From Escherichia coli (GTDB lineage: Bacteria; Pseudomonadota; Gammaproteobacteria; Enterobacterales; Enterobacteriaceae): a stretch of DNA of 64,000 nucleotides. Shown here in pieces: positions 43,064 through 64,000 of the stretch. The notes under the pieces were generated by a model. It had not been told where the DNA came from and ran no database searches. It saw only the letters and a list, made by a program, of their open reading frames with translations. Positions within the stretch are counted from its first letter, which is position 1; each line of letters starts with the position of its first letter. Both the position numbers and the translations under genes were made by a program. The stretch lies in NCBI RefSeq assembly GCF_044324785.1, contig NZ_CP172127.1; one strand, written 5' to 3'.

Positions 43064-43089
43064 TCGTACAGGGTAGTACAAATAAAGAA

Positions 43090-44482: not shown

Positions 44483-44490
44483 TGACCAAT

Positions 44491-47327: not shown

Positions 47328-47403
47328 GCCCGGATAGCTCAGTCGGTAGAGCAGGGGATTGAAAATCCCCGTGTCCTTGGTTCGATTCCGAGTCCGGGCA
47401 CCA
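47328..47403 (+). tRNA. pheU: tRNA-Phe (GAA)
   Basis: gcccggatagctcagtcggtagagcaggggattgaaaatccccgtgtccttggttcgattccgagtccgggcacca, 76 nt with GAA anticodon; promoter-like ttgacg/tttaat upstream. Confidence 0.92.
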
Positions 47404-47579
47404 CTTTCACTTCCAGATTCATCTCCCGAACTCCACGAAACTCAAGTATAATCACATCGTTACAAGCAATCTGAACATCCTGAACTCCACCGAACTCTAC
47501 TGAACTCTCTCTCAATCAAGCGTTCATTGGGGGCACCGGTGGGGGCTCATTGTGTTCAGTCAGTTTCAGGAGCCCCCAT

Positions 47580-48764
47580 ATGGCACTTACAGCCAGACAG
47601 GTCGAAACAGCCAGACCTAAAGAAAAAGACTATAAACTCTCTGACGAACGTGGTTTATATCTGCTGGTAAAAACCACGGGTGCCCGCTACTGGCGGCTTA
47701 AATACCGGATAGCAGGAAAAGAGAAAAAACTGGCCCTCGGCGTCTATCCCGACGTCTCCCTTGCTGAAGCCAGAATCAAACGCGACGATGCCCGAAAAAT
47801 TATCTCCGAAGGTGGCGACCCGGGCGAAAAGAAGCGAAAGGAAAAACTCACTCAGAAAATCTCTGCCACCAATACGTTCCATGCCCTTGCTACGGAATGG
47901 CATCAGCATAAATCTTTGTCATGGTCTGAAAGTTACGCCAGAAGCGTACTGGAGGCTCTGGATAAAGATATTTTCCCGTATCTGGGCAAACGAAGCGTTA
48001 CTGATATCCTCCCGCTGGAAATGCTGGAAATTCTGCGCCGCATAGAAAAACGTGGCTCGCTGGAAAAACTTCGTAAGGTGCGTCAATACTGTAATCAGAT
48101 TTTTCGTTATGCCATCGCCACCGGACGAGCCACTGTCAATCCGGCATCTGAACTGACCAGTACGCTGGCGGCGCCAAAAGCTGCACATTTCCCCCACCTG
48201 AGAGCAGATGAGCTCCCTGTTTTTCTCCGGAAGCTCGCTGAATATCATGGCAGTCCTGTTACCCGCATGGCGACAAATCTGCTGCTTCTGACAGGCCTCA
48301 GAACGATTGAACTACGGTCCGCTGAATGGTCAGAAATTGATTTTGATAATGCCCTGTGGACAATCCCTGAAAGCCGCATGAAAATGCGACGTAAACATGT
48401 CGTACCACTGTCACGACAGGCCACTGACATTCTGCTGCAGCTCAAAACTTTCTCCGGACAATACCGGCTGGTTTTCCCGGGACGTTGTGATATCAACAAG
48501 CCAATGAGCGAAGCCAGCATCAATATGGTGCTCAAACGTATCGGTTACGATGGCAGGGCAACCGGTCATGGTTTTCGTCACACCATGAGTACCATTCTGC
48601 ACGAACAGGGCTTTAATTCTGCCTGGATTGAAATGCAGTTAGCTCATGTGGATAAAAATTCCATCAGGGGTACCTATAATCATGCCCTGTATCTCGATGG
48701 TCGCCGTGAAATGATGCAATGGTACGCTGACTACATTGATTCACTTTCCATCCAGGAGAGTTAA
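47580..48764 (+). CDS. P4-type tyrosine integrase adjacent to tRNA-Phe
   Basis: Start MALTARQVETARPKEKDYKLSDERGLYLLV with SD caggag upstream; catalytic R...HxxR...Y residues (HGFRHT, RGTYNHALY); N-terminal arm-binding-type domain. Confidence 0.88.
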   Translation: MALTARQVETARPKEKDYKLSDERGLYLLVKTTGARYWRLKYRIAGKEKKLALGVYPDVSLAEARIKRDDARKIISEGGDPGEKKRKEKLTQKISATNTFHALATEWHQHKSLSWSESYARSVLEALDKDIFPYLGKRSVTDILPLEMLEILRRIEKRGSLEKLRKVRQYCNQIFRYAIATGRATVNPASELTSTLAAPKAAHFPHLRADELPVFLRKLAEYHGSPVTRMATNLLLLTGLRTIELRSAEWSEIDFDNALWTIPESRMKMRRKHVVPLSRQATDILLQLKTFSGQYRLVFPGRCDINKPMSEASINMVLKRIGYDGRATGHGFRHTMSTILHEQGFNSAWIEMQLAHVDKNSIRGTYNHALYLDGRREMMQWYADYIDSLSIQES

Positions 48765-48849
48765 TTACACTTTGTCCTGAAATTATTCTCACAATCAATA
48801 ACCTTTCCCTCTGATCTTACAGATCAGAGGGATTCCGTTAACTTACAAT

Positions 48850-48889
48850 AAGTGATATTGGTTGTCTGGAGATTTAGGGGGACGGTCTA
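48850..48889. repeat. Solo IS2 left-end-like terminal repeat upstream of rafR
   Basis: aagtgatattggttgtctggagatttagggggacggtcta is near-identical to the terminal repeat of the complete IS2 at 58363-58402, in the same orientation. Confidence 0.5.
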
Positions 48890-48913
48890 CTATAATAATT
48901 AGCAGGAGATAAT

Positions 48914-49924
48914 ATGTCACTTAAGGCGATTGCCACTGCACTCGGAGTTTCTGTCACCACTGTCAGTCGGGCTCTTGGAGGCTATGCAGATGTGTCAGCT
49001 TCCACCCGTGCACGGGTGGAAGCTGAAGCTCGTCGACGCGGTTACCGTCCTAATACTCAGGCAAGAAGACTCAAAACCGGTAAAACCGATGCTGTCGGTC
49101 TGGTTTATCCTGGACGTGATGTGCCATTTAACAGTGGTGTTTTTATGGATATGGTCAGTTGCATCAGCCGGGAACTTGCTCACCATGATATTGACTTACT
49201 ACTGATAGCTGATGATGAGCATGCCGATTGCCACAGCTATATGCGGCTTGTTGAAAGTCGCAGGGTTGATGCTCTCATCATTGCACACACTCTGGATGAC
49301 GATCCCCGTATCACACACCTTCATAAAGCAGGTATTCCATTTCTGGCTCTTGGTCGGGTACCATCTGGTCTGCCCTGTGCGTGGTTTGACTTTGATAATC
49401 ATGCCGGGACTGGACAGGCAACCCAGAAACTGATTGCTTTGGGACATAAACGTATTGCATTGTTGAGTGAAGACACTTCACATAGCTATGTTGTTGCAAG
49501 ACGTCAGGGATGGCTTGATGCACTGAATGAGCATGAACTGGAAGATACATGGCTGCGGCTGGTTTCTCCCACACGGCGAGCAGGATATCAGGCCGTGATG
49601 GAGTTAATGTCACTACCGATACCACCAACAGCTATTATTACTGACAATGACCTGAGTGGAGATGGTGCTGCCATGGCACTGCAGTTGAGCGGTCGTCTTT
49701 CAGGAAAAGATGCGGTATCTCTGGTTGTATATGATGGTTTGCCACAGGACAGTATTATTGAGCTGGATGTGGCTGCAGTTATTCAGTCAACACGAAGCCT
49801 CGTTGGTCGCCAGATTTCCGAGATGATATATCAGATAATTACTGATTCATCATCAAAACCACTACAGGTTGTCTGGAACCCGGTATTTTATCCGGGAAAG
49901 ACGATTCATCCTCCTTGCTCCTGA
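48914..49924 (+). CDS. rafR: LacI-family raffinose operon repressor RafR
   Basis: N-terminal HTH (MSLKAIATALGVSVTTVSRALGG) plus periplasmic-binding-protein-like sugar domain; 336 aa; precedes rafA. Confidence 0.8.
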   Translation: MSLKAIATALGVSVTTVSRALGGYADVSASTRARVEAEARRRGYRPNTQARRLKTGKTDAVGLVYPGRDVPFNSGVFMDMVSCISRELAHHDIDLLLIADDEHADCHSYMRLVESRRVDALIIAHTLDDDPRITHLHKAGIPFLALGRVPSGLPCAWFDFDNHAGTGQATQKLIALGHKRIALLSEDTSHSYVVARRQGWLDALNEHELEDTWLRLVSPTRRAGYQAVMELMSLPIPPTAIITDNDLSGDGAAMALQLSGRLSGKDAVSLVVYDGLPQDSIIELDVAAVIQSTRSLVGRQISEMIYQIITDSSSKPLQVVWNPVFYPGKTIHPPCS

Positions 49925-49945
49925 TTTTTTTATCCAGCTCACATA

Positions 49946-49981
49946 TCCGAAACGTTTTGGTTGATACCCGAAACGTTTCGG
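49946..49981 (+). promoter_or_regulatory. Putative RafR operator pair flanking the rafA -35 box
   Basis: Near-palindrome tccgaaacgttttgg, then ttgata (-35-like), then the perfect palindrome ccgaaacgtttcgg, all in the rafR-rafA intergenic region. Confidence 0.55.
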
Positions 49982-50019
49982 ATCAACAGTAAGGCATCCC
50001 TGAGAAAGGAGAATGTCTT

Positions 50020-52146
50020 ATGGTTTCAAAGTACTGCAGACTGAGCAGTCCTCGCTCTGATTTAATTATTAAAACCCGTCCACATGCAGAAATTATCTGG
50101 TGGGGCTCTGCACTGAAACATTTCTCACCGGATGACTGTGCCAGCCTGGAAAGACCGGTTGCGAATGGTCGTCTGGATATTGATACGCCACTAACACTGA
50201 TGGCTGAAAATGCCCTGGGACTTTTTAGCTCTCCGGGACTGGAAGGACACAGGAATGGGCTGGATGCATCTCCTGTTTTTTATACAGTTGACGTGGAACA
50301 TACCGAAAACACTCTGAGACTTACCAGTGAAGATTCGGTAGCCGGCCTGCGTCTGGTCAGCGAGCTGGTGATGACGCCATCAGGAATTCTGAAAGTTCGT
50401 CATGCACTGACCAACCTCAGAGAGGGGGACTGGCAGATAAATCGTTTCGCCATCACTTTACCTTTAGCGGAACGTGCGGAAGAAGTCATGGCTTTTCACG
50501 GACGCTGGACTCGTGAATTTCAGCCGCACAGGGTACGTCTCACTCATGATGCTTTTGTTCTGGAAAATCGCAGAGGGCGGACATCTCATGAGCATTTTCC
50601 GGCGCTGATTGTCGGCACGCCAGGCTTCTCGGAACAACAGGGAGAGGTGTGGGCTGTGCATCTGGGGTGGAGTGGAAATCACCGCATGAGATGTGAGGCA
50701 AAAACTGACGGCAGGCGTTACGTTCAGGCTGAGGCTCTGTGGATGCCGGGTGAGAAGGCTCTCAGGAAGAATGAAACCCTGTACACCCCGTGGCTATATG
50801 CCTGCCACTCTGCGGATGGCCTGAATGGAATGAGTCAGCAATACCATCGTTTTTTGCGTGATGAAATTATCCGTTTCCCTGAGCAAAAACCCCGCCCTGT
50901 ACATCTCAATACCTGGGAAGGTATTTATTTCAATCACAATCCTGATTACATCATGCAGATGGCTGAGCGTGCAGCAGCACTGGGCGTTGAACGTTTCATT
51001 ATTGATGATGGCTGGTTTAAAGGACGTAACGATGACCGCGCGGCTCTGGGCGACTGGTATACCGATGAACAGAAATACCCGAACGGGCTGATGCCGGTTA
51101 TTAAACATGTGAAATCTCTCGGTATGGAATTTGGCATATGGGTTGAGCCGGAAATGATTAACCCGGATTCTGACCTGTTTCGTCTTCATCCTGACTGGGT
51201 ATTGTCAATGCCTGGATATTCCCAGCCAACCGGAAGATATCAGTATGTTCTTAACCTGAATATTCCAGAGGCCTTTGCTTACATTTATGAACGTTTCTTA
51301 TGGTTACTGGGAGAACATCCGGTTGATTATGTGAAATGGGACATGAATCGTGAGCTTGTACAGGCAGGGCATGAAGGCCGTGCGGCAGCAGATGCACAGA
51401 CCCGTCAGTTCTATCGATTGCTTGATCTCCTCCGTGAACGTTTTCCACATGTTGAGTTTGAGTCCTGTGCTTCCGGTGGGGGGCGTATTGACTTCGAAGT
51501 CCTGAAACGCACACACCGGTTCTGGGCATCTGACAATAATGATGCCCTGGAGCGCTGCACCATACAACGTGGCATGAGTTACTTTTTCCCTCCTGAGGTG
51601 ATGGGGGCGCATATTGGCCATCGCCGCTGCCATGCAACTTTCCGGCAGCACAGCATCGCTTTTCGTGGGCTGACGGCATTGTTCGGCCATATGGGGCTGG
51701 AGCTGGATCCGGTGGCCGCAGATGCGAAGGAATCTGACGGTTATCGCCGGTATGCCTTGCTCTATAAAGAATGGCGACAACTGATTCATACAGGAGTTCT
51801 CTGGCGTGTGGATATGCCAGATCCTTCGATACAGGTTCAGGGAGTCGTCAGCCCTGATCAGTCTCAGGCACTTTTTATGATCAGCCAGCTTGCAATGCCG
51901 GATTACACCTTACCAGGCATACTTCGTTTTCCCGGTCTGGCGGCGGAAGTGCGTTACCGGCTTCGGGTTATTGATCACCCGGACCTCCAGGTGGTTGGTG
52001 AAGGCGGTCATACCATGCGCAAATTACCTGTCTGGATGAATCAGAGCCTTGAGGCCAGTGGTGAATGGCTGGCACAGGGAGGGATTCAGCTCCCCGTACT
52101 GGATCCGGAGAGTGCGATTTTGATAGCACTTGAAAGAGCTGTGTGA
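50020..52146 (+). CDS. rafA: Alpha-galactosidase (GH36) RafA
   Basis: 708-aa ORF with GH36 architecture; SD aaaggag upstream; first gene of the rafABD cluster. Confidence 0.85.
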   Translation: MVSKYCRLSSPRSDLIIKTRPHAEIIWWGSALKHFSPDDCASLERPVANGRLDIDTPLTLMAENALGLFSSPGLEGHRNGLDASPVFYTVDVEHTENTLRLTSEDSVAGLRLVSELVMTPSGILKVRHALTNLREGDWQINRFAITLPLAERAEEVMAFHGRWTREFQPHRVRLTHDAFVLENRRGRTSHEHFPALIVGTPGFSEQQGEVWAVHLGWSGNHRMRCEAKTDGRRYVQAEALWMPGEKALRKNETLYTPWLYACHSADGLNGMSQQYHRFLRDEIIRFPEQKPRPVHLNTWEGIYFNHNPDYIMQMAERAAALGVERFIIDDGWFKGRNDDRAALGDWYTDEQKYPNGLMPVIKHVKSLGMEFGIWVEPEMINPDSDLFRLHPDWVLSMPGYSQPTGRYQYVLNLNIPEAFAYIYERFLWLLGEHPVDYVKWDMNRELVQAGHEGRAAADAQTRQFYRLLDLLRERFPHVEFESCASGGGRIDFEVLKRTHRFWASDNNDALERCTIQRGMSYFFPPEVMGAHIGHRRCHATFRQHSIAFRGLTALFGHMGLELDPVAADAKESDGYRRYALLYKEWRQLIHTGVLWRVDMPDPSIQVQGVVSPDQSQALFMISQLAMPDYTLPGILRFPGLAAEVRYRLRVIDHPDLQVVGEGGHTMRKLPVWMNQSLEASGEWLAQGGIQLPVLDPESAILIALERAV

Positions 52147-52208
52147 AGAGAGGTACGGAGCCTCAGCTCCGTCCTGTTTCTCAATATTATCCCGTGAGGG
52201 TAAGAATA

Positions 52209-53486
52209 ATGAATTCTGCAAGTACGCATAAAAATCCCGATTTCTGGATTTTCGGTCTGTTCTTCTTTCTCTACTTTTTCATCATGGCAACCTGTTTTCC
52301 GTTTTTGCCTGTATGGCTGTCCGATGTGGTCGGACTGAGTAAAACGGATACAGGTATAGTCTTTTCATGTCTTTCTCTGTTTGCCATCAGTTTCCAGCCA
52401 TTGCTTGGGGTCATATCAGATCGCCTGGGACTGAAAAAAAACCTGATCTGGAGTATCAGCCTGTTACTTGTATTTTTCGCCCCCTTTTTTTTATATGTAT
52501 TTGCGCCCCTGCTGCGCTTCAATATCTGGGCAGGCGCACTGACTGGCGGTGTCTTTATTGGTTTTGTGTTTTCTGCAGGTGCCGGAGCTATTGAAGCTTA
52601 TATAGAGCGGGTCAGTCGCAGTCGTGGATTTGAATACGGTAAAGCGAGGATGTTCGGGTGTCTGGGCTGGGCGTTATGTGCGGCTATGGCTGGAATGCTT
52701 TTTAATGTCGATCCTTCTCTGGTTTTCTGGATGGGGTCAGTAAGCGCATTATTGTTGCTTCTTCTGTTGTTTCTGGCGCGCCCCAGTACCAGCCAGACGG
52801 CAATGGTTATGAATACACTGGGTGCCAATTCTTCCCTGATTTCGACCAGAATGGTCTTCAGCCTGTTTCGCATGCGTCAGATGTGGATGTTTGTTCTCTA
52901 CACGATTGGTGTGGCCTGTGTCTATGATGTATTTGATCAGCAGTTTGCCACATTTTTTCGTTCATTCTTTGACACTCCTCAGGCAGGAATAAAAGCATTC
53001 GGATTTGCTACCACTGCGGGGGAGATTTGTAATGCCATTATCATGTTCTGTACACCATGGATAATTCATCGCATTGGTGCCAAAAATACCCTGCTTGTTG
53101 CGGGGGGAATTATGACCATCCGCATTACCGGTTCTGCTTTTGCCACCACCGCGACAGAAGTGGTGATTCTGAAAATGCTTCACGCTCTTGAAGTTCCATT
53201 TTTGCTGGTTGGGGCGTTCAAATATATTACGGCAGTGTTTGACACCCGACTGTCAGCGACCGTTTATTTAATAGGTTTTCAGTTTTCCAAACAACTTGCT
53301 GCAATACTTCTCTCTACCTTTGCCGGCCACCTGTATGATCGTATGGGATTCCAGAATACGTATTTTGTGCTCGGGATGATTGCTCTGACTGTTACCGTGA
53401 TATCAGTTTTCACGCTGAGTTCTTCCCGCGGGAGCGTACACCCTTCTGTAGAAAAAGCCCCTGCAGCGCATTCGGAGATTAACTGA
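52209..53486 (+). CDS. rafB: Raffinose permease RafB (LacY-like MFS symporter)
   Basis: Start inferred at MNSASTHKNPDFWIFGLFFFLYFFIMATCFPFLPVWL (LacY-like N-terminus), about 425 aa with 12 TM segments. Confidence 0.85.
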   Translation: MNSASTHKNPDFWIFGLFFFLYFFIMATCFPFLPVWLSDVVGLSKTDTGIVFSCLSLFAISFQPLLGVISDRLGLKKNLIWSISLLLVFFAPFFLYVFAPLLRFNIWAGALTGGVFIGFVFSAGAGAIEAYIERVSRSRGFEYGKARMFGCLGWALCAAMAGMLFNVDPSLVFWMGSVSALLLLLLLFLARPSTSQTAMVMNTLGANSSLISTRMVFSLFRMRQMWMFVLYTIGVACVYDVFDQQFATFFRSFFDTPQAGIKAFGFATTAGEICNAIIMFCTPWIIHRIGAKNTLLVAGGIMTIRITGSAFATTATEVVILKMLHALEVPFLLVGAFKYITAVFDTRLSATVYLIGFQFSKQLAAILLSTFAGHLYDRMGFQNTYFVLGMIALTVTVISVFTLSSSRGSVHPSVEKAPAAHSEIN

Positions 53487-54916
53487 TGAAACAGCGTCTT
53501 GCTTTGGCACAGTCTGCCCTTGAAAAACTTTGCGCACGTCGTGGTAATGCCTGGTACCCGATTTTTCATCTGGCTCCACCTGCCGGCTGGATGAATGATC
53601 CAAATGGCCTTATTTACTTCAATGGGCGTTACCATGCGTTCTTCCAGCATCATCCTGCAAGCGCATATCAGGGGCCAATGCACTGGGGGCATGCCACCAG
53701 TACCGACATGTTGCACTGGCAACACGAACCTGTCGCGCTGGCACCCGGAGATAAATATGATCGTGATGGCTGTTTTTCAGGGAGTGCCGTGGATGATGAT
53801 GGCGTGCTATCACTTATTTATACTGGTCATATTTGTCTCGATGATCGTGGTAATGACAGCATTATCCGTGAAGTACAGTGTCTGGCTACAAGTCATGATG
53901 GTATTCACTTTGAGAAGCAGGGCTGTGTGCTGACACCTCCGGAAGGTATAATGCATTTCCGTGATCCCAAAGTCTGGCACGAAGACGGCTCCTGGTGGAT
54001 GGTCATTGGTGCCCGGGACGCTTCTGACAATGGGCAAGTTCTGTTGTATCGCGGGACATCTTTGCGGGACTGGCATCTGGAGCATGTTCTTGCTCATTCC
54101 GCAGCCGGAAAAAGTTATATGTGGGAATGCCCCGATTTCTTCAGGTGTGGTAATTTTCACTGGCTGATGTTCTCACCACAGGGGATGCCCCCTTCCGGTT
54201 ATCGGTTCCGTAACCTTTTTCAGAGCGGTGTGTTGGCAGGGAGCTGGAAGCCTGGTTCTGTCTTTGCGCTGAAAGGGGGATTTGAAGAGCTGGATTATGG
54301 TCATGACTTTTATGCTCCACAGTCCATGCTGGCTGAGGACGGCAGGCGTATCATTATGGCATGGATGAATATGTGGGATTCACCCGTGCCCACCCGCAGT
54401 GAAGCCTGGGCAGGATGTCTGACGCTGCCCAGAGAGGTTTTTGAGCGCGATGGCCGGCTGTGCCAGCGACCTGTGCGTGAAGTCGAATCTCTGCGCAAAA
54501 AATGCCAGCCATTATCCCCTGTAAGGTTACAGGGTTTGCAATTACTGACCGAAAATGTACAGGCCGCAGAATTATTGGTGACGTGGCATACGGTTGACAG
54601 TCATGCGGAGCACTATGGCGTCCGCCTTGGAGACGGTCTGCGACTTTATGTGGATAATCAGGCCGGGCGACTGGTACTGTGGCGCTATTACCCTGAGGAA
54701 GGGTTGGATGGTTACCGCAGTGTTGAACTTCCTGATACAGAATATCTGACTCTTCGTATTTTCTTGGATCGTTCATCTGTTGAAGTGTTTGTTAACGATG
54801 GTGAGGCAACCTTATCAAGTCGTATTTATCCGCAAGCGGACTCGAGACAATTATCGTTATATGCCGCTCATGGCGATGCGATATTAACTGATGGCACTTT
54901 ATGGATGCTGACCTGA
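53486..54916 (+). CDS. rafD: Sucrose-6-phosphate hydrolase/invertase (GH32) RafD
   Basis: GH32 signature WMNDPNG plus the RDP and EC motifs; start overlaps the rafB stop (TGATG). Confidence 0.85.
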   Translation: MKQRLALAQSALEKLCARRGNAWYPIFHLAPPAGWMNDPNGLIYFNGRYHAFFQHHPASAYQGPMHWGHATSTDMLHWQHEPVALAPGDKYDRDGCFSGSAVDDDGVLSLIYTGHICLDDRGNDSIIREVQCLATSHDGIHFEKQGCVLTPPEGIMHFRDPKVWHEDGSWWMVIGARDASDNGQVLLYRGTSLRDWHLEHVLAHSAAGKSYMWECPDFFRCGNFHWLMFSPQGMPPSGYRFRNLFQSGVLAGSWKPGSVFALKGGFEELDYGHDFYAPQSMLAEDGRRIIMAWMNMWDSPVPTRSEAWAGCLTLPREVFERDGRLCQRPVREVESLRKKCQPLSPVRLQGLQLLTENVQAAELLVTWHTVDSHAEHYGVRLGDGLRLYVDNQAGRLVLWRYYPEEGLDGYRSVELPDTEYLTLRIFLDRSSVEVFVNDGEATLSSRIYPQADSRQLSLYAAHGDAILTDGTLWMLT

Positions 54917-55110
54917 GACATATCGATATCAGTATTTTTTCTGACATTATCTGTCATTACTTTGCCAGTACACATTAATTATCTTTGCTGTGTGCTTTTG
55001 GTAATGTGTTGCGATTATATATACCAGTCTGGTGAAGAATATGAATGGTATTTTGTGTTGATACAGAGAATATAAGAGTACCCACATTTGTTTTTATTTA
55101 AGGGGGTAAA

Positions 55111-56505
55111 ATGAATAAGTTACTTTTGGGTTTATCTCTTTTTTTATTACTGGAATACAATGCGTGTGCAGCAAAAACAGGGGGGCTAACGCTTGAACAA
55201 AGAATGGCATTGCTGGAAGAACGCCTGGAAGCTGCAGAAAAAAGGGCGGAAAAAGCAGAAAGAATGTTAAAGAGTTTTGATATAGAACAACATTCTGAAA
55301 TACGTCAAATTAGTTCAGAGCAGAATAAAAAAGATGCTAACAGCTATGCAGTAGTTGAGTCAACAAAAGAAAAAACATCTTCTCCAGGTTTTCTGCTCTC
55401 TGGTTACAATGATTTGAAGTTTTATGGTGATGTGGAGTTTAATATAGATGCTGCCAGTAAACCCGGTCAGTTAGTAATGATAAGTTCCGGGGCGAACAGT
55501 GAGTCAGTGAATGAACGGTGGGACCTTAATGGCCGTATTCTATTAGGTTTTGACGGTACCCGTAAGCTTGATAATGGTTATTTCGCTGGATTTTCAGCAC
55601 AACCACTGGCGGATATGCACGGTTCAGTGAATATTGATGATGCATTATTCTTTTTTGGAAAAGATGACGAGTGGAAAGTGAAAGTCGGTCGTTTTGAAGC
55701 TTACGATATGTTCCCTCTAAATCAGGATACTTTCATTGAGTATTCCGGTAATACAGCTAATGATATTTATGCTGATGGCCGTGGTTATATCTATATGATG
55801 AAAGAGGGACGCGGTCGTTCTGACGCTGGTGGTAATTTCCTCATCAGTAAACAACTCGATAACTGGTATTTTGAGTTAAACACGTTACTTGAAGACGGAA
55901 CATCTTTATATAATAACGGTAATTATCATGGACGATATATGGAGCAGCAGAAAAATGTCGCTTATCTGCGCCCGGTAATTGCCTGGTCGCCAACGGAAGA
56001 ATTCACAGTCTCCGCAGCGATGGAAGCGAACGTGGTAAAAAATGCTTATGGCTATACCGATAATAAGGGGAATTTTGTCGATCAGTCCAATCGTTCCGGT
56101 TATGGTATTAGCATGACATGGAACGGTCTGAAAACAGATCCGGAAAATGGCATCGTGGTTACTCTTAATACCGCCTATTTGGATGCCAGTAATGAGAAAG
56201 ATTTCACTGCCAGTATTAATGCTCTGTGGAAACGTTTCGAACTGGGTTATATCTACGCACATAATAAGATTGATGAATTTAGTGGTGTCGTGTGTAATAA
56301 TGGTTGCTGGATTGATGGTGAAGGAATATACAACATTCACACCATTCATGCATCTTATCAGTTTGCTAATGTGATGGATATGGAGAACTTTAATATTTAC
56401 CTCGGGGCTTATTACTCAATTCTGGATAGTAACTGTAGATATAGTAATTGTGACATTACCGATGATCGTTACGGTGCCCGATTACGTTTCAAATACTTTT
56501 TTTGA
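55111..56505 (+). CDS. rafY: Raffinose glycoporin RafY
   Basis: 464-aa protein with signal peptide, N-terminal coiled-coil (LEERLEAAEKRAEKAERMLK) and beta-rich body ending in an aromatic residue (RFKYFF), typical of outer-membrane porins. Confidence 0.8.
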   Translation: MNKLLLGLSLFLLLEYNACAAKTGGLTLEQRMALLEERLEAAEKRAEKAERMLKSFDIEQHSEIRQISSEQNKKDANSYAVVESTKEKTSSPGFLLSGYNDLKFYGDVEFNIDAASKPGQLVMISSGANSESVNERWDLNGRILLGFDGTRKLDNGYFAGFSAQPLADMHGSVNIDDALFFFGKDDEWKVKVGRFEAYDMFPLNQDTFIEYSGNTANDIYADGRGYIYMMKEGRGRSDAGGNFLISKQLDNWYFELNTLLEDGTSLYNNGNYHGRYMEQQKNVAYLRPVIAWSPTEEFTVSAAMEANVVKNAYGYTDNKGNFVDQSNRSGYGISMTWNGLKTDPENGIVVTLNTAYLDASNEKDFTASINALWKRFELGYIYAHNKIDEFSGVVCNNGCWIDGEGIYNIHTIHASYQFANVMDMENFNIYLGAYYSILDSNCRYSNCDITDDRYGARLRFKYFF

Positions 56506-57005
56506 TGCATAGTAACAAAGTATTGTTCCACACTTACATTAACGCGTTTTTCGGGCGCGTCATCAGCGATGCATACGAATGATCGCAGTCTGCCAATGGT
56601 CGATTTATCTTGGTTGCGCAGGGGCGAGCACCGGGCAGGTACCGGCGGCTGACTCTGAAGCTCTGAGTCGGGTAATTGCGTCAGGTCACGAAGGACTGAC
56701 ACGGGTATTGGTGGCAGGTGATGAAGTACTGAGTGTGGTAATTTCGGGGATGCAATGCAGGAGCTGAGTCAGGTTTGCACTGAGCTGAGGACCCGTAGCG
56801 AGCGGGTTCCTGCTATTTTTCGGTGTCAGGGGCGCAAGTCCCGACGTCGGGACTTGCCGGGAGATTGTCAGGTCATTGACCGGGTGTGAGCGGCTCGACG
56901 TAAGCGGTAGATATGCCCAATTCCCCCCGATAAATTCATTACCAAACACATTATTCAATTTGTTTTTATTTTTCCGCTTTCAGTCATTATCGCTATCGCT
57001 TCGTC

Positions 57006-57071
57006 GGTAATGACTCCAACTTATTGATAGTGTTTTATGTTCAGATAATGCCCGATGACTTTGTCATGCAG
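57006..57071. mobile_element. IS1 terminal fragment (66 bp), truncated by the IS2 insertion
   Basis: ggtaatgactccaacttattgatagtgttttatgttcagataatgcccgatgactttgtcatgcag is identical to the first 66 bp of the complete IS1 at 59354; it abuts the IS2 end directly. Confidence 0.8.
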
Positions 57072-57082
57072 TGGATTTGCCC

Positions 57083-57988
57083 CTATATTTCCAGACACCT
57101 GTTATCACTTAACCCATTACTGGTCCGCTGCCGCAGATATTCCCGTGGCGAGCGATAACCCAGCGCACTATGCGGATGCCATTCGTTATAATGCTCGAAC
57201 GCCTCTGCAAGGTTCTTTGCTGCCGTTAACCCGTCTGGTTTGGGCATGATACTGATGTAGTCACGCTTTATCGTTTTCACGAAGCTCTCTGCTATTCCGT
57301 TACTCTCCGGACTCCGCACCGCCGTGTTCTTCGGTTCAAGTCCCAACATCCGGGCGAACTGGCGTGTTTCATTAGCCCGGTAGCATGAACCATTATCCGT
57401 CAGCCACTCCACTGGAGACGACGGAAGATCGTTGCCGAAGCGGCGTTCCACCGCTCCTGGCATGACGTCCTGTACTGTTTCACTGTTGAAGCCGCCGGTA
57501 GTGACCGCCCAGTGCAGTGCCTCACGATCACAGCAGTCCAGCGCGAACGTGACACGCAGTCTCTCTCCGTTATCACAGCAGAACTCGAACCCGTCAGAGC
57601 ACCATCGCTGATTGCTTTCTTTCACGGCCACTCTGCCAGTATGTGCCCGTTTCGATGGCGGTACAGCGGTTTTTCGCTCAAGCAACAGCGCATTCTGGCG
57701 CATGATCCGGTAAACACGTTTGGCATTGATCGCAGGCATACCATCAAGTTCGGCCTGTCTGCGAAGCAGCGCCCATACCCGACGATAACCATACGTGGGC
57801 AGCTCTCCGATAACATGGTGTATACGGAGAAGCACATCCGTATCATCTGAGTGACGGCTGCGGCGACCATCTTTCCAGTCATCGGTTCGTCTGAGAATTA
57901 CGTGCAACTGCGCACGCGACACCCGGAGACAACGGCTGACTAAGCTTACTCCCCATCCCCGGGCAATAAGGGCGCGTGCGCTATCCAC
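57083..57988 (-). CDS. insD: IS2 transposase OrfB (InsD)
   Basis: 301-aa DDE transposase [30 protein letters not shown]. Confidence 0.92.
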
Positions 57989-58311
57989 TTTTTTGCACGC
58001 CCGTATTCAACGGCTTCTTTAAGGAGTTCATTTTCCATCGTTTTTTTGCCGAGCAGGCGCTGGAGTTCTTTAATCTGCTTCATGGCAGCAGCAAGTTCAG
58101 AGGCAGGAACGACCTGCTCTCCTGCGGCCACAGCAGTAAGACTTCCCTCCTGGTATTGCTTGCGCCAGAGAAATAACTGGCTGGCTGCCACACCGTGTTG
58201 CCGGGCAACAAGGGAGACCGTCATTCCCGGTTCAAAACTCTGCTGAACAATAGCGATCTTTTCCTGTGTAGTACGCCGTCTGCGTTTCTCCGGTCCTAAG
58301 ACATCAATCAT
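57946..58311 (-). CDS. insC: IS2 OrfA (InsC)
   Basis: Start [43 protein letters not shown] protein; 3' end overlaps insD in the programmed frameshift arrangement. Confidence 0.9.
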
Positions 58312-58562
58312 CTGCTCTCCAATGACTAGTCTAAAAACTAGTATTAAGACTATCACTTATTTAAGTGATATTGGTTGTCTGGAGATTCATGGGGCCAGTC
58401 TAGCAGATTATGGTGCGCAGTTATACAACAGCAGTAATGAGGAGTCTACTATTTCTCTTGTTATGCCAGATGCAATTGAATGGAACGGAAAGAATACGCC
58501 AAGACGGCAATACATGATAAAATATATTGCCGTATTTAAATATTAAAATTTATTTTTGTAGA

Positions 58563-58952
58563 TCATCTGAATTTTCGGTGACCTTCAAGTTTTATATCGT
58601 TCATTTTATCCAGAGACTCACGTAATGATTCTATATTCCCGTCCTCAACTTTCTTTTTTGCAATATTGATTTCATGTTGTAGTTTTTTTAACTCTTCCTT
58701 ATAACTATCTACAGAAACTTTATCATTAACATCTATCTTTTCAGGAATAATATTCATAGAAGAATCTACAGATTTATCCATCATTTCAAGAGCATTTAAT
58801 AGTGATGATTTATCATTGGAAGATTGTAGAATACTCATACTTTTGGCAAGAGACTGCATGTTTTTATCCAGGCCGGAAGCCAAAGATACGTTGCTGAGAG
58901 ATAAAAAAATAGCTAGTACAGCACCTGAGAAAAATACCTTTTGTTTTTTCAT
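58563..58952 (-). CDS. Secreted cytochrome b562-like four-helix-bundle protein (divergent CybC homolog)
   Basis: Start MKKQKVFFSGAVLAIFLSLSNVSLA (signal peptide); mature region aligns with cytochrome b562 including the Met heme ligand (SGLDKNM vs ADLEDNM) and C-terminal His (LEGHRKFR vs NAYHQKYR). Confidence 0.6.
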   Translation of the reverse strand: MKKQKVFFSGAVLAIFLSLSNVSLASGLDKNMQSLAKSMSILQSSNDKSSLLNALEMMDKSVDSSMNIIPEKIDVNDKVSVDSYKEELKKLQHEINIAKKKVEDGNIESLRESLDKMNDIKLEGHRKFR

Positions 58953-59368
58953 TAATATATTCCTGTTCAAAGTTGATTATAGTTATGTCAATTTAAGTTT
59001 ATTATTATGATTTTTTATTTTTGTACTATGAATCTCCTGTATGCTTATATGTGCAGAAAATCTCATTTTATCAAGAAGAATATCAAATTTTCTCCGATAC
59101 TTCTACATACTCCATCATTCATGCTCCTTTTATCCGTGCACCGTAAAACCCCGTCCTTCAGCGGGGGATATAAGGCGCTGTTTTCCACCTAACCAGGTGT
59201 CTGCTGCTATTCAATGTATTGGCGGATGACGGATGCCGCCCGTTGAAGCAGGACCCCTCGTCCTTAGGGCGTGGAGGATGTCAAAATGAAAACTTGTGGT
59301 ATGAATCAATCCATTCATCATCCTTTCGGATCATTGCATTCAGTATAACGCTGGGTAATGACTCCAAC

Positions 59369-59872
59369 TTATTGATAGTGTTTTATGTTCAGATAATGCC
59401 CGATGACTTTGTCATGCAGCTCCACCGATTTTGAGAACGACAGCGACTTCCGTCCCAGCCGTGCCAGGTGCTGCCTCAGATTCAGGTTATGCCGCTCAAT
59501 TCGCTGCGTATATCGCTTGCTGATTACGTGCAGCTTTCCCTTCAGGCGGGATTCATACAGCGGCCAGCCATCCGTCATCCATATCACCACGTCAAAGGGT
59601 GACAGCAGGCTCATAAGACGCCCCAGCGTCGCCATAGTGCGTTCACCGAATACGTGCGCAACAACCGTCTTCCGGAGACTGTCATACGCGTAAAACAGCC
59701 AGCGCTGGCGCGATTTAGCCCCGACATAGCCCCACTGTTCGTCCATTTCCGCGCAGACGATGACGTCACTGCCCGGCTGTATGCGCGAGGTTACCGACTG
59801 CGGCCTGAGTTTTTTAAGTGACGTAAAATCGTGTTGAGGCCAACGCCCATAATGCGTGCACTGGCACGACAT
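59369..59872 (-). CDS. insB: IS1 InsB
   Basis: 167 aa, [37 protein letters not shown]. Confidence 0.92.
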
Positions 59873-60066
59873 CCGACGCCATTCATGGCCATATCAATGA
59901 TTTTCTGGTGCGTACCGGGTTGAGAGGCGGTGTAAGTGAACTGTAGTTGCCATGTTTTACGGCAATGAGAGCAGAGATAGCGCTGATGTCCGGCAGTGCT
60001 TTTGCCGTTACGCACCACGCCTTCAGGAGCGGAGCAGGAAGGACATCTGATGGAAATGGAAGCCAC
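59791..60066 (-). CDS. insA: IS1 InsA
   Basis: 91 aa, [40 protein letters not shown]. Confidence 0.92.
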
Positions 60067-60329
60067 GCAAGCACCTTAAAATCACCATCATACACTAAAT
60101 CAGTAAGTTGGCACCATTACCTGACCAAGCTTCCTCTATTGCGGCACCTGATTGCATCAATATCGAAAGTGATAAGATCCTCTCACTAGCAGGGCATGAC
60201 AAGTGTAACTGCTGATTTGTTAGCCTGTTTTAAGTTTTTTAAGATCAATTATTTCTCATTTTTTGACTTTATTGCTAGCCGTGAAAATGCAAAGCCTATA
60301 GGATACAAAAATTACAATTTGTAGGTTTT

Positions 60330-60836
60330 GTGAGTCATATGAAGGCAACCAATATAGACCCTCAACTGCTTGAAAAAGCCACGAGTATCTTTGCTGAGTT
60401 GGGCTTACCTATTGAGCAGGCTATTAACGTCTTTTTAGCTAAATCCGTTCAAGCCAAAGGTTTTCCGTTTTCTGTTGCTCTTGAAAATGAAGTAGAGACA
60501 CGGGAAGTTGCACAAACGCAACACAATATCAGCAATGCAGAGATAACCGAAGCTATCCAAGACTTGGTTGAACATGCTCTACCACTGAGTGAAATAGAAA
60601 ACCTCACGCAGCTAACCTATTGTCGCAACATTTTTGGGTTGTCATTCCCCGTGCTCAAACTGGCTAAATCATCACGGCCAGAAGACATTCGCAGTGCAGC
60701 CAAAGATGCCAAAGAGCGAAACCGCTACTCCACCACTAAAGTGGCCCAGCGAGATGAAAAAACCTATGTTATTTGCACCCAATGGACCGACAGACATCGT
60801 TCTGCATTTTGCCGTTGGCAAGCCATCTTTAGCTAG
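60330..60836 (+). CDS. RelB/DinJ-like ribbon-helix-helix protein with an uncharacterised C-terminal extension
   Basis: N-terminal 50 aa (KATNIDPQLLEKATSIFAELGLPIEQAINVFLAKSVQAKGFPFSV) follow the DinJ pattern; the remaining 110 aa or so are unassigned; alternative ATG start at 60339; AT-rich; no toxin gene adjacent. Confidence 0.5.
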   Translation: MSHMKATNIDPQLLEKATSIFAELGLPIEQAINVFLAKSVQAKGFPFSVALENEVETREVAQTQHNISNAEITEAIQDLVEHALPLSEIENLTQLTYCRNIFGLSFPVLKLAKSSRPEDIRSAAKDAKERNRYSTTKVAQRDEKTYVICTQWTDRHRSAFCRWQAIFS

Positions 60837-60902
60837 AACGCAAAATAATAACCAAACAATACACTGATTTTTTAACGATTTAACTTCATTTAGGTAGTAT
60901 CA

Positions 60903-62882
60903 ATGAACTTACAAGACAAAGAACAAAGCGCCAAACTCTCCAGTGCTATTTGGCGTATGGCAGATGATTTATGGGGTGATTTCAAACACACCGATTTTGC
61001 GCGGATTATCCTGCCATTTTTGCTACTGCGTCGTATTGAATGCGTGTTAGAACCCACCCGTGAGGAAGTTCGTAAGTTCTATCTGGCCGAAAAACAATCC
61101 GGCATAGACCTTGGTTTAGTGTTGCCAGAAATTGCGGGATTCGCCTTTTACAACACCAGTGAATATAGCCTAGAAACCTTAGGCGCGTCAGACACCGGCG
61201 ACAACCTAGAACACTACATCAGCCAGTTCAGCAAAAACGTTCGTACCATCTTTGATGAGTTTAAATTTGGTCAAACCATAGAAGATCTGGAAAAAGCCAA
61301 GTTGCTGTATCGCATGGTAAACCATTTTGCCAACCTCGACTTGCATCCTGATGTAGTGTCTGACCGCGTATTATCAGATGCTTATGAAGAGCTGATTCTA
61401 AAGTTCGCCAGTTCGGTTAATGAAAAGGCCGGGGAATTTATGACCCCGCGTGATGCCGTGCGTCTTGCCACCAAACTGGTGCTGGCGGCGGATGAAGATA
61501 TCTTTAGTGAAAAGGGTGTGATCCGCACCATCTATGACCCAACCTGTGGCACGGGCGGTTTCCTTTCCGATGCCATTAGCCAAATTGAAGAAATGGGCAG
61601 CAGCGCTAAAGTCGTGCCTTTTGGTCAAGAGCTCGACCCCGCGACCCATGCCATGGCGCTGACCAATATGATGATCCGCGGTTTTGATGCCAATAACATC
61701 AAGCAAGGCAACACCTTATCAGACGATCAGTTACGTGCCGACAAGTTTCACTACGGCCTTGCCAACCCGCCATTTGGCATTAAGTGGGAAAAAGCCAAGA
61801 AAGAAGTAGAACGTGAGCACAAACAGCTCAAATACGCCGGACGCTTTGGGCCAGGCCTGCCGAGTATTTCTGATGGTTCAATGCTGTTTTTACTGCACTT
61901 GGTATCAAAAATGGAAACGCCGGAAAATGGTGGTGGCCGAGTGGGTATAGTCCTTTCTGGCTCGCCACTGTTTAATGGCGATGCAGGCTCAGGCCCATCA
62001 GAAATCCGCCGTTGGCTGCTAGAACAAGACTTAGTCGAAGCGATTGTTGCCCTGCCAACCGATATGTTCTTCAACACCGGCATTGGCACCTACATCTGGA
62101 TTTTGACTAACCATAAAGAGCCAAGACGCAAGAATCAGGTGCAACTGATTAACTTGGCAGATATTTGGACTCCCATGCGTAAATCGCAAGGCGATAAGCG
62201 CAAGTACCTGAGTGATGAACAGATTGACGATATTGTCCGTGCGTACGATGGCTTTGAAGCCAGTGACAACTGTAAGATCTTCCAGACTACTGATTTTGCC
62301 TACCGTAAAGTCACCATTCAGCGTCCACTGCGTGCCAAACTAGATATTACCGCTGCGGGCATTGCTGCATTTGTGCAGCAAGATACGTTTAAAAAACTCA
62401 AACCAGAGCAACAAGCGGCATGGGTACAATACCTCACCGATAACCTTGGCCTTCAGCCTTATGAATGGGCACGTTTGGCGGTTAAGAAGAATAACAATAA
62501 GGGTGACTTTGGTAAGTGCTCAAAAGCACTGGCTACGGCCTTAACTGCGCACTTTGTAAAAATTGATCCGCAATTTGAGCCTGCACTGGATGAAAAAGGC
62601 CAAGTGATCGCCGACCCTAAACTCAAAGACACCGAAAGCATTCCTTTTGACCGCGACGTTGAAGATTACTTCGCACAAGAGGTGCTGCCACATGTACCGG
62701 ATGCCTTTATTGATCACTCAGTGCGTGATGAAAAAGACGGCGAAGTGGGCATTGTCGGTTATGAAATTAACTTTAACCGCTATTTCTACCAATACGTGCC
62801 ACCACGCGAGTTGAGTGTGATTGATCGTGAGCTAAAAGCATGTGAAGCGCGCATTCAGGCTCTGCTGAATGAGGTGGCGTAA
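60903..62882 (+). CDS. hsdM: Type I restriction-modification N6-adenine DNA methyltransferase subunit HsdM
   Basis: 659 aa with AdoMet motif YDPTCGTGGFL and catalytic NPPFG; stop overlaps the hsdS start (TAATG). Confidence 0.88.
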   Translation: MNLQDKEQSAKLSSAIWRMADDLWGDFKHTDFARIILPFLLLRRIECVLEPTREEVRKFYLAEKQSGIDLGLVLPEIAGFAFYNTSEYSLETLGASDTGDNLEHYISQFSKNVRTIFDEFKFGQTIEDLEKAKLLYRMVNHFANLDLHPDVVSDRVLSDAYEELILKFASSVNEKAGEFMTPRDAVRLATKLVLAADEDIFSEKGVIRTIYDPTCGTGGFLSDAISQIEEMGSSAKVVPFGQELDPATHAMALTNMMIRGFDANNIKQGNTLSDDQLRADKFHYGLANPPFGIKWEKAKKEVEREHKQLKYAGRFGPGLPSISDGSMLFLLHLVSKMETPENGGGRVGIVLSGSPLFNGDAGSGPSEIRRWLLEQDLVEAIVALPTDMFFNTGIGTYIWILTNHKEPRRKNQVQLINLADIWTPMRKSQGDKRKYLSDEQIDDIVRAYDGFEASDNCKIFQTTDFAYRKVTIQRPLRAKLDITAAGIAAFVQQDTFKKLKPEQQAAWVQYLTDNLGLQPYEWARLAVKKNNNKGDFGKCSKALATALTAHFVKIDPQFEPALDEKGQVIADPKLKDTESIPFDRDVEDYFAQEVLPHVPDAFIDHSVRDEKDGEVGIVGYEINFNRYFYQYVPPRELSVIDRELKACEARIQALLNEVA

Positions 62883-64000
62883 TGAATGCTGGCAACATAG
62901 TAGATGCTTTCGTATCTGACTCGAAATGGAACTCAGTACCAGCTAAACGTTTATTTACGAGTAGCAAAGAAATCAATCAAGGAATGAAAGAATCTAATCG
63001 TCTTGCACTAACAATGAAAGGTGTCATAAACCGCTCGTTAGACGATTTACAAGGACTTCAATCTTCTGATTACTCTGTTTATCAGATTTTTGAAAAAGAT
63101 GACTTAGTTTTTAAGCTCATAGATCTTGAAAATATAAAGACTAGCCGAGTGGGGATTGTGCATGAACGAGGAATAATGAGCCCTGCATACATCCGTGTTT
63201 CAGCGAGTTCAAATAGCATCTACCCAAGGTTCTATTACTGGTACTTTTTTGCTCTATACCTAACCAATATTTATAACAAACTGGGTGGAGGAGTTCGTCA
63301 GAACCTAACAGCTGGTGATCTTTTAGAAATACCTGTTCCACTGATTGATATTTCATTACAGAAGCAGGTTAGCACATTCCTTGATCGCGAAACCCAGCGC
63401 ATCGACAGTCTGATCGAGGAAAAGCAGACCTTTATTAAGCTGCTCAAAGAAAAACGCCAAGCACTGATCAGCCATGTGGTCACAAAGGGGCTCTATCCCA
63501 ATGTGGAGATGCAGGACTCTGGCATCGAGTGGATTGGGCAAGTGCCGAAGCATTGGGAAGTCAAAAAGATAAAGCATATTTGCTCCAACTTTATGTATGG
63601 AACCTCTCAAGACTGTAACCAGTCTGATGTTGGCTATCCTGTTCTCAGGATACCAAACATCAAGAGTACCAATGTTGATTTTGAAGATCTCAAATATGCA
63701 AATATCAGTGATGTTGATGCTTTAACTTATCTTTTATCAAGAGGCGACATTTTAGTCATCAGAACTAACGGTAACCCTAATCTGGTCGGCCAAAGCGCGC
63801 TTTTTGATTCAAATGGGCAGTATTTATTTGCGTCGTACCTAATAAAGTTAACACCAAAGCAAGGAGTGGATACTAGCTTCTTAGTGGAAGCGATGAACTC
63901 ACTATCTGTTCGTCAAGCATTAACATTTCAGTCAAGAACATCGGTAGGTAACTACAACCTGAGCATTCCTTCACTAGCTAATACAAGTATTGCTATCCCA
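62882..64000 (+). CDS. hsdS: Type I restriction-modification specificity subunit HsdS, 5' partial (runs off the window end)
   Basis: Open frame from ATG 62882 to the window end (373 codons, manual translation); first variable target-recognition domain, conserved central segment FLDRETQRIDSLIEEKQTFIKLLKEKRQALISHVVTKGL, then a second variable domain. Confidence 0.8.
   Translation, partial: MNAGNIVDAFVSDSKWNSVPAKRLFTSSKEINQGMKESNRLALTMKGVINRSLDDLQGLQSSDYSVYQIFEKDDLVFKLIDLENIKTSRVGIVHERGIMSPAYIRVSASSNSIYPRFYYWYFFALYLTNIYNKLGGGVRQNLTAGDLLEIPVPLIDISLQKQVSTFLDRETQRIDSLIEEKQTFIKLLKEKRQALISHVVTKGLYPNVEMQDSGIEWIGQVPKHWEVKKIKHICSNFMYGTSQDCNQSDVGYPVLRIPNIKSTNVDFEDLKYANISDVDALTYLLSRGDILVIRTNGNPNLVGQSALFDSNGQYLFASYLIKLTPKQGVDTSFLVEAMNSLSVRQALTFQSRTSVGNYNLSIPSLANTSIAIP

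Follow-up and report, generated by a model that had tools for sequence, protein, structure and literature searches.

Insertion sequences at the joints between raf, cytochrome b562 and relB-hsd modules in an Escherichia coli tRNA-Phe island

Modules and junctions of the island

The window, a stretch of 64,000 nucleotides of E. coli DNA, carries an island that starts with an integrase gene on the 3′ side of tRNA-Phe and holds a mosaic cargo with many IS elements, as do other tRNA-Phe (pheU/pheV) islands with a P4-type integrase (Table 1). We assign the site to pheU because dcuA, dsbD and yjdC/dicD lie just upstream, where the open reading frames have NCBIfam matches to DcuA, DsbD and DicD/YjdC. 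By contrast, near-identical copies of the same island are found at pheV (yqgA, speC context) in 98232, 702/18, EF5-18-41 and PK8276, and the chromosome next to the island differs by 1.2-2.5% between backgrounds. A search of the literature gave no relevant account of a raf island at tRNA-Phe, and an Rfam scan of 56400-60400 gave no matches.

Table 1. Features of the island in the window.
Feature	Coordinates	Strand	Basis or remark
tRNA-Phe (GAA), pheU, island attachment site	47328-47403	plus	ARAGORN
IS2 remnant, 41 bp, orfA-proximal end (TAGACTGG... end)	48849-48889	minus	left boundary of raf block
raf block: regulator, alpha-galactosidase, MFS permease, GH32 hydrolase, porin	48914-56505	plus	
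raf block right flank	56506-57005		ends at IS1 IRR in every genome inspected
IS1 fragment, 66 bp	57006-57071	minus	IRR end of the IS1A-type copy native to the raf block
IS2, complete, 1331 bp, orfA + orfB	57072-58402	minus	IS2 family transposase annotation
IS2 ORFs, 136 and 301 aa	57946-58356, 57083-57988	minus	ORF list
Cytochrome b562 segment, 951 bp, G+C 0.35	58403-59353	minus	most probably of ColV/APEC-type IncF plasmid origin
Cytochrome b562 CDS	58563-58952	minus	Pfam PF07361, E 8e-15
Complete IS1, 768 bp	59354-60121	minus	aligns end to end with IS1A
IS1A-type part, IS1 positions 1-476, IRR side, adjoins b562	59354-59829	minus	diagnostic sites
IS1-X-type part, IS1 positions 504-768, IRL side, adjoins hsd	59857-60121	minus	diagnostic sites
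Complete IS1 ORF, 91 aa	59791-60066	minus	
Complete IS1 ORF, 167 aa	59369-59872	minus	
relB-like gene and start of type I restriction-modification module	60122-64000	plus	
relB-like gene	60339-60836	plus	Pfam RelB, 24.2 bits against a cut-off of 22.4
hsdM	starts 60903	plus	RefSeq annotation of identical records

Two IS1 sequences flank the centre of this arrangement, and the earlier note had described them as lying in direct orientation around IS2 and a b562-like segment. This description holds: the fragment is identical at 66 of 66 positions to the first 66 bp of the complete copy (59354-59419) in the same orientation, and between the two lie a full 1331-bp IS2 and a 951-bp segment with the cytochrome b562 gene. 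The whole 6.5-kb stretch is present in 11 independent complete E. coli genomes at 99.6-100% identity, so the arrangement is not an assembly artefact. For the comparison across strains we used 5,426 complete E. coli genomes; counts based on BLAST are lower bounds in IS-rich genomes. The junction comparison that the note proposed gave a simple pattern, in which each module keeps its own IS junction while the opposite side of the IS varies.

The genes of the raf block are the equivalents of rafR, A, B, D and Y, according to the ORFs and the RefSeq annotation of an identical record. Directly upstream of rafR, the 41-bp remnant is 90% identical to IS2 positions 1291-1331 in the window orientation. 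The right flank of the block occurs in at least 283 genomes, in 250 of which it is adjoined by IS1 positions 1-66 followed by IS2, and in 5 genomes the IS1 at the raf flank is uninterrupted. The joint of IS1 position 66 to IS2 was found in at least 256 genomes, against at least 250 with the raf flank, which leaves at most 6 in another context. The 66-bp fragment thus belongs to the raf block's own IS1, split by IS2, and is not the partner of the complete copy. The raf-linked IS1 has flanks of its own, CGCTTCGTC and CGCTTTGAA, that agree at 6 of 9 positions, at most a candidate for a decayed duplication; two other genomes have other right flanks, and no record has both halves of the empty site (raf flank/TPR flank) contiguous. 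We also considered plasmids as the source of the raf/IS1 joint and rejected them, as plasmid rafY is only 93.8% identical and the similarity ends at 56635.

The IS2 that follows has the length (1331 bp), the TG...-type terminal repeats (TGGATTTGCCCC... and ...GGGGCCAGTCTA) and the orfA/orfB pair with frameshift of an IS2 element of the IS3 family. Its flanks, TGCAG and GCAGA, do not form a 5-bp target duplication. Across genomes, five different sequences abut its 57072 end and three abut its 58402 end.

Cytochrome b562 is recognized over profile positions 2-102 of 102, with 55.7 bits against a cut-off of 30. Its junction with IS2 occurs in at least 140 genomes, mostly on plasmids of the ColV type, where the match stops at 59354, and the segment with this same junction was counted at no fewer than 248 plasmid places against at least 22 chromosomal ones. 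The closest described region is that of ColV/APEC-type IncF plasmids, with the order int'/IS2/cytochrome b562/LysR'/IS1A (pGF4-A, the pAPEC-O2-211 plasmid and the IMT5155 plasmid). It shares with the window the IS2/b562 junction and the entire 951-bp segment (0 SNPs against pGF4-A), but a further 233 bp lie between the end of the segment (59353) and IS1A, and the plasmid IS2, which adjoins the integrase gene on its other side, differs from that of the window at 24 sites. From these matches, the b562 gene on these chromosomes most probably came from ColV-type virulence plasmids. The plasmid IS2 is flanked as GCAGAat/IS2/GCAGAtt, a pattern that could reflect a 5-bp duplication shifted by 2 bp; an empty site with integrase and b562 contiguous was found in none of 72,556 plasmids. 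None of the 72,556 plasmids of PLSDB has the b562/IS1 joint of 59353/59354, and for this reason the step that made it is one we infer. Had IS1A simply inserted into the b562 segment, the joint would have the form b562...ATAACGCTG/IS1A/ATAACGCTG-GAAGAGCC, and the reciprocal junction would run from the right end of IS1 into ATAACGCTGGAAGAGCC.

On the other side, the left edge of the hsd module is the IRL of IS1 in all the E. coli genomes inspected. The hsd flank occurs in at least 76 genomes, and the IS1 end was attached to it in all 19 of the matches listed and in the 6 that we fetched. The left neighbours of this hsd-linked IS1 are at least four: the b562 segment, an autotransporter gene, an integrase fragment and an inovirus Gp2 gene. 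Relatives of the hsd module in Vibrio and Shewanella (83-88% amino acid identity) show nucleotide similarity only from about 60246 on, and the 124 bp adjoining IS1 on the hsd side have no counterpart in them. The missing step would be supplied by DNA that continues without a break upstream of TGACCAAGCTTCCTC.

The complete IS1 is a chimera of two IS1 types

The complete IS1 has the size (768 bp) and the imperfect terminal inverted repeats expected of the family: its 23-bp ends, GGTAATGACTCCAACTTATTGAT on the left and GGTAATGGTGCCAACTTACTGAT on the right (reverse-complemented), are intact and alike at 19 of 23 positions. It also has the insA and insB' frames, and in an identical RefSeq record it is annotated as an IS1 transposase with a programmed frameshift (-1). 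What it does not have is a 9-bp target duplication. The flanks are as the earlier note gave them, and the absence of a duplication that it reported is borne out: ATAACGCTG on the left and TGACCAAGC on the right agree at 2 of 9 positions, which is the level of chance. Nor is there a word of 7 bp or more common to any pair of 30-bp flanks, and a synthetic query joining TGACCAAGC to the IS1 IRR had no exact match in the 5,426 E. coli genomes.

The body of the element accounts for this absence. We defined 71 diagnostic sites as the differences between the IS1A of pGF4-A and the hsd-linked IS1 of FORC_031, a divergent type that we call IS1-X. The complete IS1 of the window matches IS1A at all 44 sites in positions 1-476 and IS1-X at all 27 sites in positions 504-768 (Fisher p 3e-20), and it has a single difference from the pGF4-A IS1A in 503 bp. 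It is thus an IS1A/IS1-X chimera with one switch, between positions 477 and 503, and the duplication is missing because of this chimeric origin. In S30, EA13, Eco889 and FORC_031 the IS1 at the identical hsd junction is pure IS1-X, and other hsd-linked copies switch elsewhere, at about 516-573 in PK8275 and EC21Z-147 and at 705-714 in CM2; the hsd end is always of type X.

These observations bear on the alternative that the transposase alone was responsible, that is, that intramolecular transposition of the hsd-linked IS1 (adjacent deletion or inversion) made the joint with no homologous exchange. IS1 is reportedly, after Reif and Saedler, a classic source of adjacent deletions, and the chromosome-specific b562/IS1 joint, which lies 233 bp short of the plasmid IS1A and has no duplication, is consistent with a deletion that stopped at a new target; an adjacent deletion is a likely origin of this joint. 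However, such a process cannot explain an element with IS1A in one half, IS1-X in the other and a single clean changeover between them, nor sister copies at the same junction that switch elsewhere. We consider it improbable as a full account; a transposase-driven rearrangement is best seen as one extra step, a candidate only, within the recombination model set out below.

IS2 alleles and the PK8276 island

The IS2 of the window also appears to be a recombinant: it is of the raf-linked type up to at least position 27 (counted from the 57072 end) and of the b562-linked type from position 53 on. This crossover interval of 25 bp (28-52) rests on one site, C27 versus T27. The body of the window's IS2 matches the allele that adjoins asrA fragments in A3176 and CM2; in A3176 there is no raf block within 46 kb upstream of that copy. 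Four IS2 alleles are found in genomes with the window-type order, and all have a raf-type start and switch to the b562-linked allele before position 293, at 28-52 in the window, before 32 in PK8275, at 155-269 in EF5-18-41 and at 190-269 in 702/18. Unique DNA of related genomes differs by 0-1 SNP per 1-2.4 kb, against as many as 24 differing sites between IS alleles, and we therefore regard the IS differences as exchanges and not as accumulated mutations. Some of the allele patterns may, however, have been obscured or even produced by gene conversion between IS copies.

A structural counterpart is provided by the island of PK8276, with which the window aligns in two pieces of the same orientation (47280-57364 with island positions 2498-12579, and 57072-64000 with 38169-45097). 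This island has both IS2 copies, the raf-linked and the b562-linked one, 25,882 bp (25.9 kb) apart in direct orientation. The raf-linked copy is a 293-bp remnant followed by the remainder of the raf-linked IS1 (positions 352-768), and a left partner of 293 bp predicts what the four alleles show, namely switches that all fall before position 293. From this alignment, the window looks like a deletion derivative of a PK8276-type island. Direct derivation from PK8276 was rejected, as the b562-linked IS2 copies differ at 9 sites between positions 32 and 291; PK8276 is a structural model and not the ancestor, and no direct ancestor of the window's own combination of alleles was found among the E. 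coli genomes compared.

Taking the evidence together, we think it very probable that three older modules, raf, b562 and relB-hsd, were joined by homologous recombination between IS copies in a tRNA-Phe island. The genomes show directly that the raf block always ends at an IS1 into which IS2 inserted at position 66, the state seen in about 250 genomes. In PK8276 a later internal deletion has fused IS2 position 293 to IS1 position 352 over a 6-bp overlap, to give the order raf/IS1(1-66)/IS2(1-293)/IS1(352-768). The relB-hsd module, for its part, carries the divergent type X IS1 at a fixed junction. Judging from the chimera, recombination between IS1A and IS1-X in the interval 477-503 would have replaced the left flank of IS1-X, with the b562 segment, which a ColV-type plasmid would have supplied along with its IS2, ending on the left of the hsd-linked IS1; the joint at 59353 would require one further IS1 event, either an adjacent deletion of 233 bp or an independent IS1A insertion. 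Finally, PK8276 and the IS2 alleles suggest that the 293-bp raf-linked remnant recombined with the full b562-linked IS2 downstream. The 25,882 bp between the direct copies, including the rest of the raf-linked IS1, would have been deleted, leaving the order of the window, raf/IS1(1-66)/IS2/b562/IS1/hsd. That the change was a deletion rather than an insertion is a parsimony argument. No target duplication would be visible in this scheme, since each IS has one flank from each parent.

The four switch points within the first 293 bp, the presence of the island at both pheU and pheV and the background difference between the chromosomes also raise the possibility that the 25.9-kb deletion recurred and produced the window order more than once, in three lineages or more. 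We hold this reading, in which the island would be a hot spot that was reduced convergently time and again, perhaps under selection, only tentatively, and would sooner doubt it than accept it.

The junction counts also weigh on a composite transposon, in which the complete IS1 and the 66-bp IS1 end would bound a Tn9-like unit that moved in between raf and hsd. Composites with IS1 in direct repeat are known (Tn9), and the window resembles them in the direct pair around passenger DNA, with intact outermost ends that form a correct pair (IRR at 57006 and IRL at 60121) and an intact transposase gene inside. However, the left copy is a 66-bp stub of another, older IS1, whose missing part (positions 352-768) is present in PK8276. 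The outer flanks, which the earlier note had proposed to search, show no 9-bp duplication around the unit (CGCTTCGTC before 57006 and TGACCAAGC after 60121 agree at 2 of 9 positions). The outer junctions are independent of each other and predate the passenger: raf/IS1(66)/IS2 occurs in at least 250 genomes without b562, IS1/hsd occurs in its 76 or more genomes next to no fewer than three further left neighbours, and the b562-linked IS2 copies outside raf islands are all without the IS1 fragment. Nor was the unit found in a second context among the genomes inspected, all 11 full-length matches having the same raf and hsd flanks. We regard this origin as highly improbable. It is hardly conceivable that IS1 inserted simply and that point mutations later erased the 9-bp duplication. 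The only support for this is the intact element, while 7 of 9 positions would have changed next to unique DNA with 0-1 SNP per 1-2.4 kb across all related genomes. The flanks, moreover, come from modules that have nothing to do with each other: the left one is plasmid b562 DNA, and the right one adjoins a Vibrio-like hsd module.

The note had left the choice between recombination and a composite element open, and of these two it is recombination that the chimera and the several left neighbours of the hsd junction show directly. It had further proposed that the IS1 pair joined b562 and hsd to the raf block. This stands in part: IS1 does join b562 to hsd, but IS2 joins raf to b562, and in PK8276 hsd is already in the raf island, 26 kb downstream.

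IS copies as portable homology in islands

The events to which the locus points are of a known type, ordinary genomic-island shuffling. Natural E. coli isolates are said to contain IS1 mosaics (Lawrence, Ochman and Hartl), and the window agrees with recombination between IS copies in having one flank from each parent, no duplication, a single type switch and the loss of DNA between direct repeats. Nothing essential sets it apart, although it involves two IS families, with one joint each within 3 kb, and one recombination partner would have been only a 293-bp IS2 remnant. The complete IS1 together with the 66-bp piece should not be annotated as a transposon, and the complete IS1 and the IS2 are hybrids. 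The importance of the finding beyond such bookkeeping is little. A missing target duplication is to be read, as here, as a recombination scar, and the locus illustrates neatly how IS copies, acting as portable homology, shuffle cargo in E. coli islands, in this case genes for sugar use, a plasmid-derived gene for a haem protein and a foreign restriction system.

Island layout and the ends of the IS elements

The stretch belongs to an E. coli chromosome in which a genomic island begins directly after a tRNA-Phe gene (47328-47403), and this gene is pheU, as dcuA, dsbD and yjdC/dicD are found upstream of it. The arrangement is real, since the entire 6.5-kb stretch is present in 11 of 5,426 complete E. 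coli genomes with 99.6-100% identity. Elsewhere in the window, three tandem tRNA-Gly(GCC) genes (18163-18463, minus strand, 112-bp period) form the ordinary glyVXY cluster.

Features of the island downstream of the tRNA-Phe gene (window coordinates)
Feature	Coordinates	Remarks
Integrase gene	47550-48764	First in island
raf genes (n = 5)	48914-56505	
Flank right of the raf genes		500 bp
IS1 end	57006-57071	66 bp
IS2	57072-58402	Complete
Cytochrome b562 gene segment	58403-59353	951 bp; Pfam PF07361
IS1	59354-60121	Complete
relB-like gene and type I restriction-modification module (hsd)	from 60122	

The earlier note had described two direct IS1 sequences around IS2 and the b562 segment, and these are indeed present: positions 1-66 of the complete IS1 repeat the sequence at 57006 without a difference and in the same orientation. 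The complete IS1 is 768 bp long, with good terminal repeats and intact frames of insA and insB' size. That it lacks a 9-bp target duplication was also correct, its flanks ATAACGCTG and TGACCAAGC being alike at 2 of 9 positions, and the duplication sought between the outer flanks (left of 57006, CGCTTCGTC; right of 60121, TGACCAAGC) was not found either, with 2 of 9 alike. IS2 has no 5-bp target duplication (flanks TGCAG and GCAGA), the 30-bp flanks of the IS elements share no word of 7 bp or longer, and no IS junction yielded an empty site or a matching duplication.

Module junctions and the chimeric IS1

Junction-spanning searches revealed that each module (raf, b562 and relB-hsd) retains one IS junction and exchanges the other. 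Of 283 genomes with the raf flank, 250 continue with the first 66 bp of IS1 and with IS2; in five an uninterrupted IS1 is located at the same point, with right flanks that are different again and no duplication. The b562 segment, present in 140 genomes, occupies 248 places on ColV/APEC-type IncF plasmids and 22 on chromosomes. These plasmids have the IS2-b562 junction too, and pGF4-A is identical to the window across all 951 bp of the segment, but the plasmid match ends at 59354, where a further 233 bp of the segment, reaching into a LysR gene fragment, precede its own IS1A (the IS1 type of pGF4-A). What borders IS2 at its 57072 end differs between genomes: the IS1 stub, a plasmid integrase gene, or a fragment of asrA or of IS66. 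The relB-hsd flank was found in 76 genomes, with the IS1 end joined at the same base in 19/19 listed and 6/6 fetched cases; to the left of this IS1, at least 18 genomes have the b562 segment and five an integrase fragment adjoining tia, ApSLC23 has an autotransporter gene, and EC21Z-147 has an inovirus Gp2 gene.

At the hsd junction, S30, EA13, Eco889 and FORC_031 carry a divergent IS1, type X, which differs from IS1A over its whole length. Using 71 diagnostic sites that separate IS1A (pGF4-A) from X (FORC_031), we found that the window IS1 follows IS1A at 44/44 sites in positions 1-476 and X at 27/27 sites in positions 504-768. In the hsd-linked IS1 of PK8275 and EC21Z-147 the switch lies around 516-573, in that of CM2 at 705-714, and in IPCEC42 the pattern is more complex; the hsd end of these sister copies is always X. 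The switches are direct evidence of recombination between IS1A copies and the resident IS1-X, by which new left-hand DNA was imported, and this is why the complete IS1 has no target duplication. The proposal of recombination rather than simple insertion is therefore supported, the complete IS1 being an IS1A/X chimera. The exact b562-IS1 joint (59353/59354) was seen on chromosomes only, and would need one further IS1 event: either an adjacent deletion of the 233 bp, or an independent IS1A insertion at 59353/59354 followed by recombination.

The window order and the PK8276 island

PK8276 carries two IS2 copies in one island. After its raf flank come IS1 positions 1-66, IS2 positions 1-293 (counted from the 57072 end), positions 352-768 of an IS1A-type IS1 and a TPR gene, with a 6-bp overlap between the IS2 and IS1 matches that marks a microhomology joint. 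The 66-bp fragment is thus part of a different IS1, the raf block's own, and not of the complete copy. IS2 thus inserted at position 66 of that IS1, and an internal deletion later took out the greater part of IS2 and a piece of the IS1.

The PK8276 island runs 25,882 bp further, with a phosphoethanolamine transferase gene, sucrose genes and IS fragments, and beyond these has IS2, b562, IS1 and relB-hsd oriented as in the window. The two sides align with window 47280-57364 and 57072-64000, and recombination of the 293-bp remnant with the full IS2 would yield exactly the window's order, which looks like a deletion derivative of a PK8276-like island. Genomes with this order have four IS2 alleles, each of raf type at the left and of b562-linked type before position 293; the switch lies at 28-52 in the window, before 32 in PK8275, at 155-269 in EF5-18-41 and at 190-269 in 702/18. 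With a full-length IS2 as left partner, it would be improbable that all four switches fall in the first 22% of the element (about two in a thousand by a rough estimate), and their position fits a 293-bp left partner. Deletion, not insertion, as the direction of change rests on parsimony. PK8276 itself was rejected as the literal ancestor, given 9 differing sites between its b562-linked IS2 and that of the window, and serves as a structural model. The window IS2 body is, save for position 27, the allele found beside asrA fragments in A3176 and CM2.

In the A3176, AR13438 and CM2 chromosomes the block from IS2 to hsd adjoins, left of IS2, fragments of asrA, asrB and asrC (anaerobic sulfite reductase). 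Island genes downstream of hsd in 98232 are upstream and inverted in A3176, which indicates further IS-mediated inversions. PK8275 offers yet another setting of the raf-to-hsd block: in place of the tRNA-Phe core flank, a different island fills the 16 kb before the expected island start and carries sul2, antirestriction and radC genes, and toxin-antitoxin genes of the cbtA/yeeU type.

Neighbouring DNA, spread and mode of assembly

Directly upstream of rafR lies a 41-bp remnant of the orfA-proximal IS2 end (48849-48889, 90% identity), so that with the IS1 end at its right the raf block is bounded on both sides by IS debris. Plasmid rafY (PLSDB) has 93.8% identity to the chromosomal gene and the similarity ends at 56635; the chromosomal block is therefore a lineage separate from the PLSDB raf plasmids. 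Islands of the FXCREC004 type have a complete raf-linked IS2 and, after it, a copy of the rafY-downstream sequence in inverted orientation and with slight divergence (record L003 of this type, 10904-10960; window 56540-56590) and a CDI immunity gene, and part of window 56532-56729 is repeated in EHEC chromosomes at 84-87% identity. Either an inversion associated with IS2 or an island backbone element present in several copies is hinted at by these repeats. About 136 bp of the b562 segment (59149-59285) have a second copy on ColV-type plasmids, recur at 96% identity on the STE15 chromosome, and have no Rfam match. The relB-like and hsd genes (60246-63573) show 87-92% nucleotide identity to Vibrio contigs and have Shewanella relatives at 83-88% amino acid identity; judging by these similarities, the restriction module seems to have been acquired recently from marine gamma-proteobacteria. 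For the 124 bp that separate the complete IS1 from this similarity, the Vibrio and Shewanella relatives have no counterpart.

The two direct IS1 sequences could bracket a Tn9-like composite element, the other route of arrival in the earlier note, but this reading is not supported and fails three of four tests: there is no outer duplication, the unit has no second context among the genomes inspected, and what would be its left copy is the stub of a different IS1. Both outer junctions, on the raf and hsd sides, are also older than the passenger.

The unique DNA is nearly invariant among all compared islands. The window's island is at pheU, and near-identical ones are located at pheV, with yqgA-speC upstream, in 98232, 702/18, EF5-18-41 and PK8276, whose pheV-side core flanks differ by 1.2-2.5%. 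Invariant island DNA beside diverged core flanks implies that the island spread recently and horizontally to both Phe tRNA genes; such spread removes the phylogenetic signal that would tell one origin of the window's order from several.

All the parts are already known: IS1, IS2, cytochrome b562, a type I restriction system and a tRNA-Phe island. The process is likewise textbook recombination, in which IS copies provide the homology for deletion and replacement and chimeric elements without target duplications result.
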